The notes: generated by a model not told the origin, from the sequence alone. Counted from the first letter of the stretch, positions 29,695-37,699 are shown. The stretch: 64,000 nt of DNA from Acidimicrobiales bacterium (GCA_029246685.1 JAQWMR010000013.1:192181-256180), one strand, 5' to 3'. Translations and numbers: made by a program.

Positions 29695-32532
29695 TTAAGA
29701 AGGCTGGGGGGTGCCGAGGTGATACATCGGAGCGGCGGGCTTCAGGGGGCGGGCGTACCAGAGCGGGCGGCGCAGGCCGCCGGGGCCGGGGGCGGGGCGC
29801 GTCTTGCTCAACCAGTCCAGGTAGGCCTCGCGGGACTTTGCTGTGTCGACGACGACATCGCCGTACTGATCGCCGCCCTCCGCGGGCGTGACCGTCACGC
29901 GTTGGTGCCAGCACTGCATGCCGGAGATGGGGTCTGGCTGCACGGAGAACGTCAGGTTCTGATGCACGCCGGTGTCGTTCCACCAGATGCGGTTCGAGTC
30001 CGGATCATCCGAGACGAACTTCCGAATGCCGTCGGTACGGCTGAGCTTCCAGGTGCCGTCGGACTGCTTGTCGATGGTGGCCTTGCCGGTACCCCATGAC
30101 CGCGCCTTGTCTTCTTCGATGCGCCAGCGGCCCATGTGGTGCGACGCGGCGACGACGCCGGGGCGAATTCCCTCCGTGCGCCATGCCTGGATGACGAAGT
30201 GGCCGATGCGAGTCGAGATGCGGACGAGTCCGTTCTCTTCGATCCCGAGCACCTCGGCGTCGCTCGGATGAATCCACAGCGGGTGTCGGTGGCTGATCTC
30301 GTTGAGCCACTTGGAGTTGGCCGAGCGCGTATGGATCAGCGTCGGAATCCGGAAGGTCGGGAGCAGGATGCGCTCCCCCGCTTCCATGTCCAGGTCCTCG
30401 TGATGCACGTGCGACGGGATCCAGGTGGGGGCCGCGTACTCCGGCCAACCCCAGTCCTTCAGCGTGGTCGAGAAGAGCTCCAGCTTCTTCGACGGCGTCG
30501 GGAAGCCCTCCTTGATCTCACCGTCGATCTCGACAGCAGGTGAGCCCTCGCCGAGGTCAGCCAGCGCGATCTCGTCGAGTCCCTCGGCCGTGCCGTCCCA
30601 GGTGGCGATCGTGCCGGGCTTTCGGAAGACACCGTCGTCGCCCTTTACACAATCGGTGACCTCGTCGGGCAAAACGATGCGTTCGTATGGCGTAATCATG
30701 TCGCCCGGCACGGCATACGATCCGACGTCGCGCATGAACTCGAGCGGGGTCTTGCCCGCCGCCGCGGCGTCCTCGGCGAGGCCGGGGACGGACTCGGCGA
30801 ACATCGTGCCGTAGTACTCGTCGACCGTGATCGGCGTGCCAGGTCGCTCGTCGGACTCGAACCATTGACGGATTCCTCGGGACCCGTCGGGGTCGATGTG
30901 CCATGAGAGGTCGATCCAGAACTCGTTCTCTTCCCACACCTCACCCGGATTGAACTCGTGGGTTCGGGTCTCGTGGTCGAGCTCCGCTCCGCGGATCTCG
31001 GCATAGCGCCGCATGACGGGCTGGCGGAAGCCGATCCAGCGGCCGTTGTGCGTCTCGAAGCTGGCGATGTCGTGACGCTCGGTGCCGATGCCCATCGGGA
31101 GCACGTAGTCCGCGAACCAGGATGTCTCCGACCAGGTCGGCGTGAGGGCGACGTGGCACTTCACCTTCGACTCGTCGGTGAGCGCCTCCATCCACGAGAA
31201 GCCGTCCGGGTTCGTCCAGATCGGGTTGTAGACGCGGCTGAAGTAGACGTCGAGCGTGCCCCGTCCCTCGTTCAGGAAGTGCGGCAGGAGGATCGACATC
31301 TCGTGGTACGAGAGCGGGAACTCCTTCGGCCACGAGAGCTCGTTCCACTCGTTGAGCGCCGGCGCTCCCTTGGGCTGAGCCGGCTTGAACTTGTTCCATC
31401 CGTTGCCGCTCGTTCCGCCGACCGTGGCCACAGAGCCGGTCAGGACGTTCAGGAAGAACAGGCAGCGGGCGGTCTGCCAGCCGCCGAGGTTGCCGGCACC
31501 GGCGGCACGCCAGTTGTGGGATGCGAACTTGGTCGGGTGCGCGCCGATGATCCCGGCGATCTCCCGCAGTTGGTCACCGTCCACGCCGCTGATCTCCTCC
31601 GCGGCGTCGACGGTGTACTCGGCGTAGGCGTCGAGCAGGGCCTGTTCGACGGACTCGAACTCGACCGGAAGGTCGGGCCGGGTCTCCTGGAGATACGTCT
31701 CCCAGTTGGTCCAGCGGCGGACGAAGTCCTTCTCCCATGTGCCGTTCTCGATCAGGAGGCGAGCGATTGCGAGCAGCATGAACGGCTCGGTGCCCGGCCA
31801 CGCCGGCAGCCAGTGGTCGGCTTTCGAGCCCGTGTTCGAGAGACGTGGGTCGACGCAGATGACCGTCGCACCCTTCTGCTGCGCTTCGATGATCCGCTGC
31901 GCGTGCGGGTTGAAGTAGTGGCCGGACTCGAGGTGCGACGAGATGAGGAAGACCACTTCGGCGTTCGCGAAGTCGGACGACGGCCGATCGTGGCCCATCC
32001 AGCTCTGGTAGCCGATCCGGGCGTTGGACGAGCAGATGTTGGTGTGGCTGTTGTGGCCGTCGACGCCCCAGGACTTGAGCACCCGGTCGGCGTAGCCGTC
32101 CTCGCCGGGACGACCGACGTGGTACATGATCCCGTCGCGACGGTCTTCGTCCATCGCGGTGGCGATGCGGTTGCCGATGTCGGTGAGAGCTTCCTCCCAG
32201 GAGACGCGTTCCCACTGGCCGGAGCCGCGCTCACCGACCCGCTTCATCGGGTGGAGCACTCGCTCGGTGTCGTTGACCTGGTTGAGAGTGGCCGGGCCCT
32301 TCGCGCAGTTGCGACCGCGCGACGCGGGGTGCAGCGGGTTGCCCTCGATCTTGTCGATCTCGCCGGTCTCGTGGTTGACGTGGGCGAGAAGGCCACACGC
32401 GGCTTCGCAGTTGAAGCAGGTCGTGGGCACCAACGAGTGGTGCTCTTCGACCTTGTCGGGCCACGCCTTGGCGTTGAGCGACGTGACGTCGTGCCAGTCC
32501 TCGTGGGGTGGGTACTGCTGTAGATCGGTCAT
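29695..32532 (-). CDS. Molybdopterin (bis-MGD) oxidoreductase catalytic subunit, no Tat signal
   Basis: 945 aa. N-terminal FS0 motif CFNCEAACGLL...GRNCAKG, a candidate Cys Mo-ligand segment GHNSHTNICSSNAR, and MopB-like sequence throughout. The N-terminus MTDLQQYPPHEDW lacks a twin-arginine motif. Confidence 0.9.
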   Translation of the reverse strand: MTDLQQYPPHEDWHDVTSLNAKAWPDKVEEHHSLVPTTCFNCEAACGLLAHVNHETGEIDKIEGNPLHPASRGRNCAKGPATLNQVNDTERVLHPMKRVGERGSGQWERVSWEEALTDIGNRIATAMDEDRRDGIMYHVGRPGEDGYADRVLKSWGVDGHNSHTNICSSNARIGYQSWMGHDRPSSDFANAEVVFLISSHLESGHYFNPHAQRIIEAQQKGATVICVDPRLSNTGSKADHWLPAWPGTEPFMLLAIARLLIENGTWEKDFVRRWTNWETYLQETRPDLPVEFESVEQALLDAYAEYTVDAAEEISGVDGDQLREIAGIIGAHPTKFASHNWRAAGAGNLGGWQTARCLFFLNVLTGSVATVGGTSGNGWNKFKPAQPKGAPALNEWNELSWPKEFPLSYHEMSILLPHFLNEGRGTLDVYFSRVYNPIWTNPDGFSWMEALTDESKVKCHVALTPTWSETSWFADYVLPMGIGTERHDIASFETHNGRWIGFRQPVMRRYAEIRGAELDHETRTHEFNPGEVWEENEFWIDLSWHIDPDGSRGIRQWFESDERPGTPITVDEYYGTMFAESVPGLAEDAAAAGKTPLEFMRDVGSYAVPGDMITPYERIVLPDEVTDCVKGDDGVFRKPGTIATWDGTAEGLDEIALADLGEGSPAVEIDGEIKEGFPTPSKKLELFSTTLKDWGWPEYAAPTWIPSHVHHEDLDMEAGERILLPTFRIPTLIHTRSANSKWLNEISHRHPLWIHPSDAEVLGIEENGLVRISTRIGHFVIQAWRTEGIRPGVVAASHHMGRWRIEEDKARSWGTGKATIDKQSDGTWKLSRTDGIRKFVSDDPDSNRIWWNDTGVHQNLTFSVQPDPISGMQCWHQRVTVTPAEGGDQYGDVVVDTAKSREAYLDWLSKTRPAPGPGGLRRPLWYARPLKPAAPMYHLGTPQPS

Positions 32533-32540
32533 CGGCGTTC

Positions 32541-34142
32541 CTAGGAGAGCGGCACGGACTGGCCGGCACGGACGAAGGCGTCTTCATAGGCCCACATACC
32601 GGCGAGCGCCGCGACACCCGCGGCCGCCGGGAGTGCCGGGCCCGTGTCGGCGGCGATCGAAATGGTCAGGATGGCGCCCGGCGTGAGCAGCCCGACGAGC
32701 ATGCCGAACCAGAACCGGTCCTTGTACTTGCCTCTGATCATGTGATGGAGCGCAGCCTCGACATGGGGTGTGCCCTTCGATGTCGCCTCGATCGAGACGA
32801 TCGTCGCGGTGGCGATGGCGCCCGCGAGGAATGTCCAGCGCACCGCATCGACCTCGGGGACAACCATGAAGAGGTCGATGATCGAGTACGTCGCGCCGCC
32901 GGCGGTGACCGCCTGCGCAAGCAACGTCGGGAGCAGCAGCGGCGTCCGCCAGAGGTCACGACCCTCACACTGGCCGAAGAGGAACGCCGTGTAGCCGGCA
33001 GTTGCGGCGGCGAGGATCGCCGTGGGGATTGCGGCCGCCTCGATGATGCCGGGGGAATCCTTGAGGCCTCCCACCCACCAGGCGGCGAGCGCCACGGCGA
33101 ATCCGGCGAGGATGTACGCGCCGCGGACGAGCCACGACTCCCAGCTCCCGCGGGTGATGAGGTAGTGGAAGCGACCCGGCTGCTTTAGGTCGGCCACGAG
33201 CAGCACACCGGTGAGGCCGAGGAATGCACCGGCGACCATCGGTGGGACCACGCCGACGGCGGCCTGTTCGGCGCTGTGGCCCATGAGGACGAGAAGCGCG
33301 GCCACCAACATCACGCCGGCGGCGATCGCCTTGGTGACGAGATAGCCCGACACCTTCTCCTTCCAGGTCATCTGGTGAGAGGTTGTGTAGGCAGTGCGAG
33401 CGACGACGCCGTGACTGTCGGGCGGGACGGTGGGGTGCGCGGGCGTGGTGTCGGCCCAGATCATGCCGTCTTTCGCGATCGCGGTCCGTAGAGGATTGAG
33501 CGATGCCTGATCCGCGCCTCGGTAGTAGACCTTCGGGTTCGTCCCCTGCTCGGGAGCCCGAACGGCTACCGGCTCGCGAGCGATGATGCTGGTGGCGAGG
33601 TTCAGTGGATCGTCGAGATCCGCAACTTTGATCGCATGGGTCGGGCAGACGACGACGCACGAGGGCTCGAGATTCTGTTCGATCCGGTGGTTGCAGAAGT
33701 TGCACTTCTGGGCGGTGTTCGTCGCGGGGTTGATGTACAGCGCGTCGTACGGGCACGCGTTCATGCAGCCTTTGCAGCCGATGCAATTGTCGTCGTTGAA
33801 GTCGACGACACCATTCTCCGCCCGGTACAGCGCGTTCGTCGGGCAGATCGACATGCACGGTGCGTCGTCACACTGGTTGCAACGCATCACCGAGAAGTGA
33901 CGGCTGACGTTCGGGAACGAACCACTCTCGATGTACTTCACCCAGGTGCGGTTCACACCCAGCGGCACGTCGTGTTCGCTCTTGCACGCGACGGTGCACG
34001 CGTGACAGCCGATGCAGGAGTCGCTGTCGAGAAGGAAGCCGAGTCTGGTCACCAAAGGCCTATCGGTCACGCCGGAGCGAAATGTACGGACAAATGAGTG
34101 TAGCCATTGGCTACGTAGCGCGACCGTTAGAGGTCGTGACAA
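32541..34142 (-). CDS. Fusion of 4Fe-4S ferredoxin-type (NrfC/PsrB-like) subunit and NrfD/PsrC-like membrane anchor
   Basis: N-terminal half has four Cys clusters (CIGCHACTVACK, CNQCDDAPCMSICP, CIGCKGCMNACP, CNFCNHR...CVVVCP). C-terminal half has about 8 predicted TM helices. The TTG 34142 start is doubtful, and GTG 34070 (VTDRPLVTRLGFLLD) is more plausible. Confidence 0.85.
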   Translation of the reverse strand: MSRPLTVALRSQWLHSFVRTFRSGVTDRPLVTRLGFLLDSDSCIGCHACTVACKSEHDVPLGVNRTWVKYIESGSFPNVSRHFSVMRCNQCDDAPCMSICPTNALYRAENGVVDFNDDNCIGCKGCMNACPYDALYINPATNTAQKCNFCNHRIEQNLEPSCVVVCPTHAIKVADLDDPLNLATSIIAREPVAVRAPEQGTNPKVYYRGADQASLNPLRTAIAKDGMIWADTTPAHPTVPPDSHGVVARTAYTTSHQMTWKEKVSGYLVTKAIAAGVMLVAALLVLMGHSAEQAAVGVVPPMVAGAFLGLTGVLLVADLKQPGRFHYLITRGSWESWLVRGAYILAGFAVALAAWWVGGLKDSPGIIEAAAIPTAILAAATAGYTAFLFGQCEGRDLWRTPLLLPTLLAQAVTAGGATYSIIDLFMVVPEVDAVRWTFLAGAIATATIVSIEATSKGTPHVEAALHHMIRGKYKDRFWFGMLVGLLTPGAILTISIAADTGPALPAAAGVAALAGMWAYEDAFVRAGQSVPLS

Positions 34143-36213: not shown

Positions 36214-36760
36214 GTCATCGCTCGTCCGGACGTCCCCGATGCTGCGGTACACCGTGCAGAGCGTGGCGTTGAGATCGAGGTCTCGGCGCGCGGCGTTGGC
36301 GTCCGCAACCATGATGGTCCTGTACCCCAGGGTCGCAGCGTCTCGAGCAGTGGCCTCGCAGCAGACGTTGGCAACAGTGCCGACTTCTTGCAGACGATGT
36401 CGTCGGCCTCGACCGCCAGGCTAGGCGAGATGCGGGCCCGCGAAGGGCCATCGCCGCCAGACTGTCGGTAGAGCTCCGCGAACGAGGCGCCGAGGAAGTC
36501 GACACGTGCGGGATCGGCGGCGCGTCCGTCGGCACGACCCAGGCAATGACCCCGCCGGCCGCCCGAAGGGTTCCGGCGATCCAGTTGATCGTCGGCACGA
36601 TTCCCGATGCGTACGGATTCTCGTCCACGAAGGACGGCACCATGTCCACGACGACGAGCGCGGTCCGTGTCGCCTCGAGCTGGGCGAACGCGTGCCGACG
36701 TCCCCTTTGGCGTTCGTGCCGTTCGTACTCCCGGTCGTCGATGTGCCAGGTGTGTTTCAC
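36157..36760 (-). pseudogene. Isochorismatase-family hydrolase pseudogene (frameshift plus internal deletion)
   Basis: Family-like sequence is split over three frames. They read ALVVVDMVPSFVDENPY...WVVPTDAPP, then ADPARVDFLGASFAELYRQSGGDGP...EADDIVCKKS, then GTVANVCCEATARDAATLGYRTIMVADANA. About 25 residues expected between KKS and GTVAN are absent. The C-terminal 95 aa of track ORF 36215..36760 are Arg/Ser-rich out-of-frame sequence. Confidence 0.7.
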
Positions 36761-36770
36761 CGGCCGGTCT

Positions 36771-37085
36771 TCAGAGGATCTCGAGGACGCGCTCGGCCGG
36801 GCGTCCGATCACGGCTTTGCCGTTGAGGACGGCAATGGGGCGTTGCATGTCGGCCGGATTGTCGACGAGGTGGGCGACGACTGCTTCGGCGCTCGTCTCG
36901 TCGAGGCTGGCTCGCACCATCTCGGCCGGGTCGCCGCCGACCAAGGCGACGAGGTCGTTGAGCGCGGCCGCGTCCAACGGATTCTCGATGTAGTTGTGGA
37001 TCGTGTAGTCCACGCCACGTTCGTCAAGCAGGGCGACCGCCCCGCGAGCTTTGCTTCAATTGGCGTTGTAGTAGAGCGTCAGCAT
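36771..37085 (-). CDS. arsC: ArsC-family (glutaredoxin-type) arsenate reductase with in-frame TGA at the catalytic Cys position: candidate selenoprotein, alternatively a nonsense pseudogene
   Basis: Minus strand from ATG 37085 reads MLTLYYNAN-TGA(37056-37058)-SKARGAVALLDERGVDYTIHNYIENPLD...MQRPIAVLNGKAVIGRPAERVLEIL. It is colinear with ArsC, with no other lesion and a SECIS-like hairpin downstream. Confidence 0.55.
37028..37045 (-). other. SECIS-like hairpin downstream of the in-frame TGA
   Basis: Minus strand reads GCGGGGC-GGTC-GCCCTGC: a 7-bp stem (one G-U pair) with a GGUC tetraloop. The loop starts 18 nt after the TGA. Confidence 0.45.
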
Positions 37086-37105
37086 CGCCTGATCATGGCA
37101 TGCCG

Positions 37106-37699
37106 CTATCGCTGAACGGTGCCGATCGCGTCGAGGGCACCGGGCCGGCTGAACACCTCATCGAGCAACGGCTGGAACGCCTCGATCGGAAGCGTGTCGT
37201 AGCTCGGGTCAAAACAGTTCTGATCGAACTCGGCGCAGAACCTGACGCAGTCGTCGTAGAAGGGCGAATCCGAGTACCGCTCCCTCGCATCGCGGGCGCC
37301 ACCGTTGTGATGGAAGTAGTAGTAGCCCTGGAACAGACCGTGGTGCCGAACCACCCACTCCGTCCGCTCATCGACGTACGGCTTGAGAATCGTCGCGGCG
37401 GCCTGGCTGTGGTTCACGGGTGCGAAGACGTCGCCGATGTCGTGCAGGAGGGCGCCGACGATCATGTCGACCGACTCGTCCGCCCGTAGCGCGCGGCTCG
37501 CGGACTGGAGGGAGTGCTCGTAGCGATCGACCTGGTAGCCGAGCGTCGGGCCCTGCAGGACGCGCAGCATTGCGAGGAGATTCTCCACGAGGACACCGAG
37601 GGTGTGCTCCGAGAACTCTTCGCCGAGGAACTCGTAGTCCTCCTTGGTGCCGTCCTCCATGCTCGTCCACGTCACGGTGCGTTCCGGTGCCGAAGCCAT
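37106..37699 (-). CDS. HD-domain protein with H...HD...H...H...D ligand pattern (PhnZ/TmpB/MIOX-like diiron oxygenase candidate)
   Basis: 197 aa. YEHSLQSA, ALLHDIGD, NHSQ, VVRHHG and EFDQNCFDPSY. The extra His residues beyond the minimal HD phosphohydrolase set are visible. Confidence 0.75.
   Translation of the reverse strand: MASAPERTVTWTSMEDGTKEDYEFLGEEFSEHTLGVLVENLLAMLRVLQGPTLGYQVDRYEHSLQSASRALRADESVDMIVGALLHDIGDVFAPVNHSQAAATILKPYVDERTEWVVRHHGLFQGYYYFHHNGGARDARERYSDSPFYDDCVRFCAEFDQNCFDPSYDTLPIEAFQPLLDEVFSRPGALDAIGTVQR

Follow-up and report, generated by a model that had tools for sequence, protein, structure and literature searches.

An ArsC-family gene of an Acidimicrobiales bacterium with an in-frame UGA codon and a probable bacterial SECIS element

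Does the in-frame TGA at codon 10 of an arsenate-reductase-like gene in an Acidimicrobiales bacterium end translation, or is it read as selenocysteine (Sec) under the direction of the hairpin that follows it? The gene lies on the minus strand of a 64,000-nt stretch of DNA (GCA_029246685.1 JAQWMR010000013.1:192181-256180), referred to here as the window, and a first-pass annotation made from this sequence alone had proposed that the hairpin is a bacterial SECIS element. The fold of the hairpin, its conservation and the position of the codon all support that proposal, and on these grounds we regard the hairpin as very probably a true bacterial SECIS, and the gene as one for an ArsC-family selenoprotein.

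The ArsC-like gene, its relatives and its neighbourhood

An ATG at 37085 opens a reading frame that passes through the TGA and ends at the stop codon at 36771 (MLTLYYNAN*SKARGAVALLDERGVDY...). The gene and the neighbours discussed below are:

36771..37085, minus strand: predicted ArsC-family (arsenate-reductase-like) selenoprotein gene, 104 codons plus stop, MLTLYYNAN-U-SKARGAVALLDERG...
37056..37058, minus strand: in-frame UGA, codon 10, predicted to be read as selenocysteine; aligned with the Cys of homologues
37106..37699, minus strand: upstream HD-domain gene (PF01966 match), its stop 20 nt before the ArsC-like ATG
36215-36770, minus strand: remnant of an isochorismatase-like (cysteine hydrolase) gene, frameshifted, with the ArsC-like gene on one side and the convergent aminotransferase gene on the other
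29695-34142, minus strand: 962-aa molybdopterin oxidoreductase, then a fused 4Fe-4S dicluster and NrfD-like membrane protein, ~3 kb from the predicted selenoprotein gene

For protein profile searches, Cys was substituted for the in-frame stop. The protein matches the Pfam ArsC domain PF03960 (E value 3.5e-8, 34.1 bits, cutoff 24 bits), placing it in the domain family, while its best NCBIfam match, the equivalog TIGR00014 arsC, reached 74.6 bits and so fell under the 106-bit cutoff. The best PDB matches are the arsenate reductases 3rdw (2.7e-14), 3f0i and 1i9d; residues 4-116 of 1i9d match query residues 2-104, and the N-terminal alignment to 3rdw is ungapped. In the alignment with Cys-containing homologues, the UGA codon stands at the Cys of their NPxC(S/G)K(S/A)R active-site motif, and it corresponds by offset to Cys12 of E. 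coli R773 ArsC, the catalytic position, which lends support to the selenocysteine and SECIS interpretation of the first-pass annotation. Three Arg residues are invariant in the alignment (R58, R82 and R95) and may represent the ArsC Arg triad. Arsenate is a putative substrate only. TGA is the usual stop codon in the window, where it ends 12 of the 18 genes checked, including the ArsC-like gene itself; a reassigned genetic code is therefore excluded.

Homologues were sought in a 5.8-billion-sequence protein collection, and orthologue DNA was fetched from genome and metagenome collections by protein patterns. The closest proteins in the collection (69-99 % identity) are all N-terminally truncated, at 58-87 aa, because gene callers stop at the in-frame TGA; full-length Cys-containing homologues were found only at 42-48 % identity. 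The window gene is present in the databases only as an 80-aa truncation (P0001) that starts after the TGA, and one NCBI entry among its close relatives is titled 'ArsC/Spx/MgsR family protein [Acidimicrobiales bacterium]'. All of the entries P0001-P0015 and P0017 are truncated in this way (58-87 aa), starting at varied internal Met, Val or Leu codons past the UGA, and their NCBI/JGI names include 'ArsC/Spx/MgsR family protein' and 'arsenate reductase-like glutaredoxin family protein'. These entries are a systematic mis-annotation of the clade.

A TGA at the Sec codon was found in 41 related loci, which fall into three clades. In clades A and B it occupies the same codon (9 or 10) in 32/32 loci, after a conserved N-terminus and start codon; the proteins of the two clades are ~50 % identical, and all 32 loci keep the TGA, the GGUC loop of the hairpin and the top 5 bp of its stem. 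Clade A, which includes the window gene, is a short form of ~104 aa (MLTLY(Y/H)NxN-U-SKARGAVALLDERG) without an 11-residue segment found in other homologues; its orthologues have an in-frame stop five codons 5′ of the ATG, which fixes the start codon. Clade B is a long form with an N-terminus like MTLYFNP(G/D)-U-G(K/H/Q)ARGAV(A/V)LLEE. Clade C comprises nine loci in which the TGA is also present and the downstream sequence is different, some of the genes reading UGKS.

By record title, the carriers of clade A are Acidimicrobiales and Acidimicrobiia metagenome-assembled genomes (MAGs), and those of clade B are Acidimicrobiales MAGs and two Verrucomicrobiota MAGs. The latter two loci, L008 (Verrucomicrobiales) and L023 (Chthoniobacterales), have a clade B Sec-type ArsC with the same GGUC hairpin, the other carriers all being Acidimicrobiia; this could mean that gene and SECIS were transferred horizontally as a unit, or that the binning is wrong. 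In clade C, a conserved hairpin of a different kind (CGUUCUCG, an 8-nt loop, CGAGAACG) lies ~+17 to +41 past the TGA in L061, L062, L064, L065, L069 and L071, whose genes read HNPG-U-GTARGVLDLLRERG.

The HD-domain gene and the ArsC-like gene likely form one operon, and the gene order HD, ArsC(U), convergent Aminotran_5 (class-V aminotransferase) is conserved in clade A loci. In the isochorismatase-like remnant, the N-terminal (...ALVVVDMVPSFVDENPY...) and C-terminal (...GTVANVCCEATARDAATLGYRTIMVADANAA...) portions lie in different frames. An intact, single-frame copy of the gene occurs in L035 (about 1830-2490), and most orthologous loci have none; in L001-L004, L036 and L072, which lack it, the flanking stop codons are only ~14-35 nt apart. 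Gene calling gave the same pattern, the last 51 aa and nothing more, in the independent assemblies L027-L030, so that the remnant appears to be a pseudogene rather than a read error. The catalytic subunit of the molybdopterin oxidoreductase has no in-frame TGA and is thus not a selenoenzyme. No second selenoprotein was apparent in the window in a GC3-based scan for ORFs split by TGA.

Selenoproteins of this kind have been known since 2005, when 14 arsenate-reductase (COG1393/pfam03960) selenoproteins with predicted SECIS elements and the motif UxxS were reported from the Sargasso Sea (PMC1088965; Zhang, Fomenko and Gladyshev 2005). A further 77 ArsC selenoprotein sequences came from the GOS metagenomes (PMC2398784; Zhang and Gladyshev 2008), and the family is listed in a 2026 review (PMC13188914). 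The window gene shares with this published family, 'Arsenate reductase (ArsC) 1', its membership of pfam03960/COG1393, the marine metagenome origin, Sec in place of the catalytic Cys near the N-terminus and a predicted stem-loop with an apical-loop G past the UGA. It is set apart from the published description by its motif, which is U-S-K-A in the window protein and U-S/G-K/H/Q-A (UxxA) throughout clades A and B as opposed to UxxS, and by the 11 residues missing from the short form of clade A. The window gene thus encodes a further predicted ArsC selenoprotein, different in detail.

The machinery for Sec insertion was sought with ARAGORN on the window and 42 loci and with Pfam on 20 window ORFs; in the 64-kb window and the flanks of the related loci, no selA, selB, selD or tRNA-Sec was found. 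A 2026 preprint reports a complete machinery (selA, selB, selC and selD) in Actinomarinales, another order of Acidimicrobiia, and remarks that the Rfam SECIS models do not work in that order.

Hairpin geometry and comparison with known SECIS elements

Read directly, the minus strand is AAT TGA AGCAAAGCTC GCGGGGC GGTC GCCCTGC TTGAC, or by codons AAC GCC AAT TGA AGC AAA GCT CGC GGG GCG GTC GCC CTG CTT GAC. The hairpin (37045-37028, minus strand) begins after a gap of 10 nt from the TGA, and its stem of seven contiguous pairs, six Watson-Crick and one G-U, closes a tetraloop, GGUC, with 17 nt between the TGA and its first G (the 18th nt). With the U of the UGA as +1, its parts are:

37039..37045, minus strand: 5′ arm GCGGGGC of the probable SECIS, nt +14 to +20, inner five positions conserved
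37035..37038, minus strand: apical tetraloop GGUC, nt +21 to +24, presumed SelB contact, invariant in 22 distinct sequences
37028..37034, minus strand: 3′ arm GCCCUGC of the probable SECIS, nt +25 to +31

The first-pass annotation had described the hairpin and its coordinates exactly, and the fold that it had suggested examining was recovered: RNAfold places the hairpin in both the MFE and the centroid folds of 37000-37062, with a pair probability of ~1.0 in a 120-nt context. The isolated 18-nt hairpin folds at -12.8 kcal/mol and its conserved 5-bp core at -7.5. A lower extension of the helix through the flanks (AAGCA...TGCTT), which had been offered as an alternative, appears in the window's own MFE fold but not in the orthologues.

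Judged from the window sequence alone, the hairpin is not significant and only suggestive. The window has a G+C content of 66 %, and the 63-nt segment gave z = -0.48 against dinucleotide shuffles, with 61/200 shuffles folding equally well or better; we set aside folding energy relative to shuffles, which did not discriminate in a sequence this rich in G+C. With a tetraloop, a stem of 7 bp or more and a spacer of 15-20 nt as the search geometry, 15 of the 1540 TGA trinucleotides on both strands of the window (~1 %) are followed by a hairpin, and with a looser geometry 145 are. The first-pass caveat that short GC stems are common at high G+C was therefore well placed. It is comparison with relatives that decides a case left at chance level by the lone sequence.

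The bacterial SECIS consensus of Zhang and Gladyshev describes a stem of 4-16 bp carrying a loop of 3-9 nt, with G at one or both of the first two loop positions (most often a G and then G or U), a distance of 16-37 nt from the UGA to the loop and an MFE of ≤-7.5 kcal/mol (PMC13188914). The window element has a 4-nt loop (GGUC) on a 7-bp stem, 5 bp of which are conserved, with 17 nt from the UGA to the loop and the MFE of -12.8 kcal/mol given above. It lies within the ORF, directly 3′ of an in-frame UGA aligned with Cys, and is kept in Sec-containing orthologues and absent from Cys-containing homologues, although the helix is predicted to be weak in a few of the orthologues.

No Rfam SECIS model matched the whole window at the gathering threshold, or positions 36950-37120 at E ≤ 10. 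As a control, RF01988 (SECIS_2) recognised E. coli fdhF at 87.1 bits (gathering threshold 70) and did not match the window element; the negative Rfam result thus means 'not of the fdhF family' and not 'not a SECIS'. SECIS_2 describes formate-dehydrogenase genes and not SECIS elements generally. A background score in SECIS models had been named at the outset as counting against the element, and this is formally what Rfam returned; the rule-based consensus, by comparison, is matched in full. Membership of SECIS_2 (fdhF-type) itself is ruled out, there being no match at E ≤ 10 and no bulged U.

The first-pass annotation had called the element fdhF-like and stated that the fdhF loop is also GGUC and starts about 19 nt after the UGA. 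The statement was accurate: in the real gene, 18 nt separate the TGA from a GGTC loop, which thus begins with the 19th nt, and this arrangement was confirmed in 5419/5426 E. coli genomes. The two elements share a site in the coding region directly past an in-frame UGA, the GGUC loop, a hairpin end at nt +31 and, presumably, a SelB-dependent mechanism. They differ in that the loop starts at the 18th nt in the window element, a shift of 1 nt, and in that its continuous 7-bp stem has no bulged U, which is present in fdhF in the Rfam consensus structure. The loop-closing pair is C-G in the window and A-U in fdhF; the G+C-rich 7-bp window hairpin folds at -12.8 kcal/mol and the 17-nt fdhF minimal element at -4.2; the lower helix around the UGA is long in fdhF (Rfam consensus), whereas none is conserved for the window element; and the host gene belongs to the ArsC family here and encodes a molybdopterin formate dehydrogenase in the case of fdhF. 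The label thus stands as regards the loop and its distance from the UGA, and falls as regards the bulged U, a conserved lower helix and a SECIS_2 match: the window element is fdhF-like in geometry and lies outside the Rfam SECIS_2 family.

The SECIS of Moorella thermoacetica fdhA, a formate dehydrogenase gene of a Firmicute, resembles the window element more closely in shape than the E. coli one does. Crystal structures of this SECIS with SelB reveal a bulge-less G+C-rich hairpin with a GGUC-type loop, in which the loop G and U are recognised by the C-terminal winged-helix domain of SelB. In E. coli fdhF, U17 and G23 are the SelB binding sites, and the bulged U17 is essential (PMC8659212).

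Constraint and covariation in the UGA-containing clades

Conservation of the loop and stem was assessed in 22 distinct 48-nt sequences from clades A and B. The GGUC loop is invariant and always at +21 to +24, and the five pairs below the loop hardly vary. RNAalifold keeps the 5-bp helix and the loop and finds no other conserved structure within 45 nt downstream of the UGA. The core helix is predicted to be weak in L006, L034, L044 and L053 (probability 0.08-0.33), and the low values persist when folding is limited to the sequence outside the ribosome at the UGA. Conservation in Sec-containing orthologues, which the first-pass annotation had wished to see examined, is therefore borne out for the loop and the upper 5 bp in all 22 sequences, with two pairs covarying as described below.

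The hairpin is absent from the Cys-containing homologues that keep RGAV (SKARGAVAIL in L057-L059 and SKSRGAVNLL in L042), in which other codons are used. We also built a covariance model, R1, from Sec clades A and B; it is not independent by construction and was used for the contrast between Sec and Cys forms. R1 scored clades A and B at 64-75 bits, clade C and Cys-containing forms at ≤21 and the RGAV-keeping Cys forms at ≤19; within the window it found only the site itself, and the E. coli element scored at background.

One alternative accepts the hairpin as a conserved RNA element and gives it another job (a ribosome pause, mRNA stability or translational coupling), with SelB reading some other feature. 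The missing bulged U of the E. coli SECIS and the lack of an Rfam SECIS match would fit such a role, as would the different hairpin, with its 8-nt loop, in the Sec-type ArsC genes of clade C, which means that the GGUC motif is not shared by the family as a whole. It is nonetheless very unlikely: the position relative to the UGA is fixed in 22/22 distinct sequences, the invariant GG(U) loop answers precisely to the SECIS consensus of bacteria and to the contacts made by E. coli SelB, the GGUC hairpin occurs only in UGA-containing clades, and the stretch of 45 nt past the UGA holds no other conserved structure.

Further support for a SECIS comes from codon usage. For 29 distinct CDS threaded on the protein alignment, we computed third-position entropy in the 36 codon columns whose amino acid is conserved and four-fold degenerate. 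Codons +5 to +8 after Sec (GGG GCG GTC GCC), from which the top 5 bp and the loop are built, gave 0.48, 0, 0 and 0.75 bits, and 31 of the other 32 four-fold columns lie at 0.95-1.95 bits. The sole other low-entropy column is a Leu that uses CTC wherever CTN is used; the window has TTG there. The chance that four of the five low-entropy columns should land on exactly codons +5 to +8, calculated from the column counts, is ~8.5e-5. The frozen sites are the first and last bases of the loop, whose codons (Ala GCG and Val GTC) have 0 bits across the 29 distinct CDS, and the third stem pair from the loop. Nearby codons that are no less conserved as residues (Ala +3, Arg +4, Leu +9 and Leu +10) vary freely at their synonymous sites, and the synonymous freezing is therefore not due to amino-acid conservation.

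Where the stem does vary, it does so in pairs. In alignment A4, pair 21-30, the third from the loop, is GC in 18 sequences, AU in two and GU in two, and is never broken: GGG/GCC becomes GGA/GCT in two distinct sequences and GGG/GCT, with a G-U pair, in two others, such that the third position of the Gly codon is G in 20 sequences and A in two and its partner is always paired. A second double change affects the sixth pair (18-33), where CGC/CTG becomes CGA or AGA/CTT; this pair is CG in 10 of the 22 sequences, AU in three, GU or UG in two and mismatched in seven. Overall, 95.5 % of the cells of A4 are paired, compared with 51-71 % once the 3′ partners are offset by 1-3 columns, and the covariation score was reached by 0/500 column shuffles. 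Four of the seven pairs show no variation, and the covariation therefore rests on few independent events.

These data also bear on the idea that the hairpin is a by-product of coding constraint on ARGAVALL with no RNA function, the UGA being passed in some other way such as near-cognate read-through. The peptide past the UGA is indeed highly conserved, the four invariant pairs are structurally uninformative, and G+C-rich hairpins are common in the window. Amino-acid conservation cannot freeze four-fold third positions, though, and only codons +5 to +8 are frozen; the frozen sites, when altered, are altered in pairs; and Cys-containing homologues with RGAV use other codons and form no hairpin. 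Near-cognate read-through would, in addition, place Trp or Arg at the catalytic Cys position. We consider this explanation scarcely credible.

Equally hard to sustain is the reading of the TGA as a true stop or an inactivating mutation, the product being the 80-aa protein from GTG 37013 of the public annotation (ArsC/Spx/MgsR family protein, P0001) or the gene a pseudogene, and the hairpin irrelevant: in all orthologues the nine codons before the TGA are conserved in frame with the start and specify the N-terminal strand of ArsC with its active-site motif, the truncated entries begin at different points among orthologues (58, 60, 64, 73, 80, 81 and 87 aa) so that no alternative start is conserved, the truncated protein lacks the catalytic residue, and decay would not yield a TGA kept in 41 loci of three clades.

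With the hairpin read as a SECIS, the signal also seems to influence the protein sequence. The loop codon GUC specifies Val where the majority of Cys-containing homologues carry Leu; the fixed codon thus seems, from the alignment, to impose Val at a mostly-Leu position.

The base immediately 5′ of the Sec UGA (window position 37059, minus strand) is T in 22/22 distinct clade A and B sequences (L001-L055). The site is synonymous, as the third base of an AAT, GGT or GAT codon, and third positions in these genomes are ~80 % G+C; clade C loci have T, C or G there. The invariant T/U may be a recoding-context signal.

Proposed mechanism and implications

On the SECIS reading, as the ribosome nears the UGA at codon 10, SelB carrying Sec-tRNA(Sec) and GTP would bind the GGUC tetraloop. 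The G+C-rich stem of 5 to 7 bp would present the loop and hold the tethered tRNA at the right distance from the A site, and the UGA would then be decoded as selenocysteine without termination, giving a predicted 104-residue protein with Sec at the equivalent of the ArsC catalytic Cys12. SelB binding and the actual insertion of selenocysteine are steps that we infer from the established E. coli system; the in-frame UGA at the catalytic position, the geometry of the hairpin, the constraint confined to it, the covariation of its stem and its absence from Cys homologues were found directly.

A more specific proposal, possible but doubtful, is that the SelB of Acidimicrobiia and of the clade B carriers reads a small, rigid signal: a bulge-less GGUC loop on five fixed base pairs, exactly 17 nt past the UGA, which is kept nucleotide for nucleotide across clades that are ~50 % identical and would seemingly dictate the residues G-A-V-A. 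The U before the UGA would perhaps be a second, recoding-context signal of a sort undescribed for bacterial SECIS elements.

The known mechanism of selenocysteine insertion is left unchanged by the finding. The compact SECIS variant proposed here, with a GGUC loop and no bulge, can be compared against the rules established in E. coli, and the alignment offers a clean natural case of RNA and protein constraints sharing 18 nucleotides. As regards annotation, the gene and all its close relatives are stored as truncated forms without the catalytic residue, and recognition of the SECIS restores a predicted selenoenzyme of 104 aa. It also marks these marine Acidimicrobiales as predicted users of selenocysteine.
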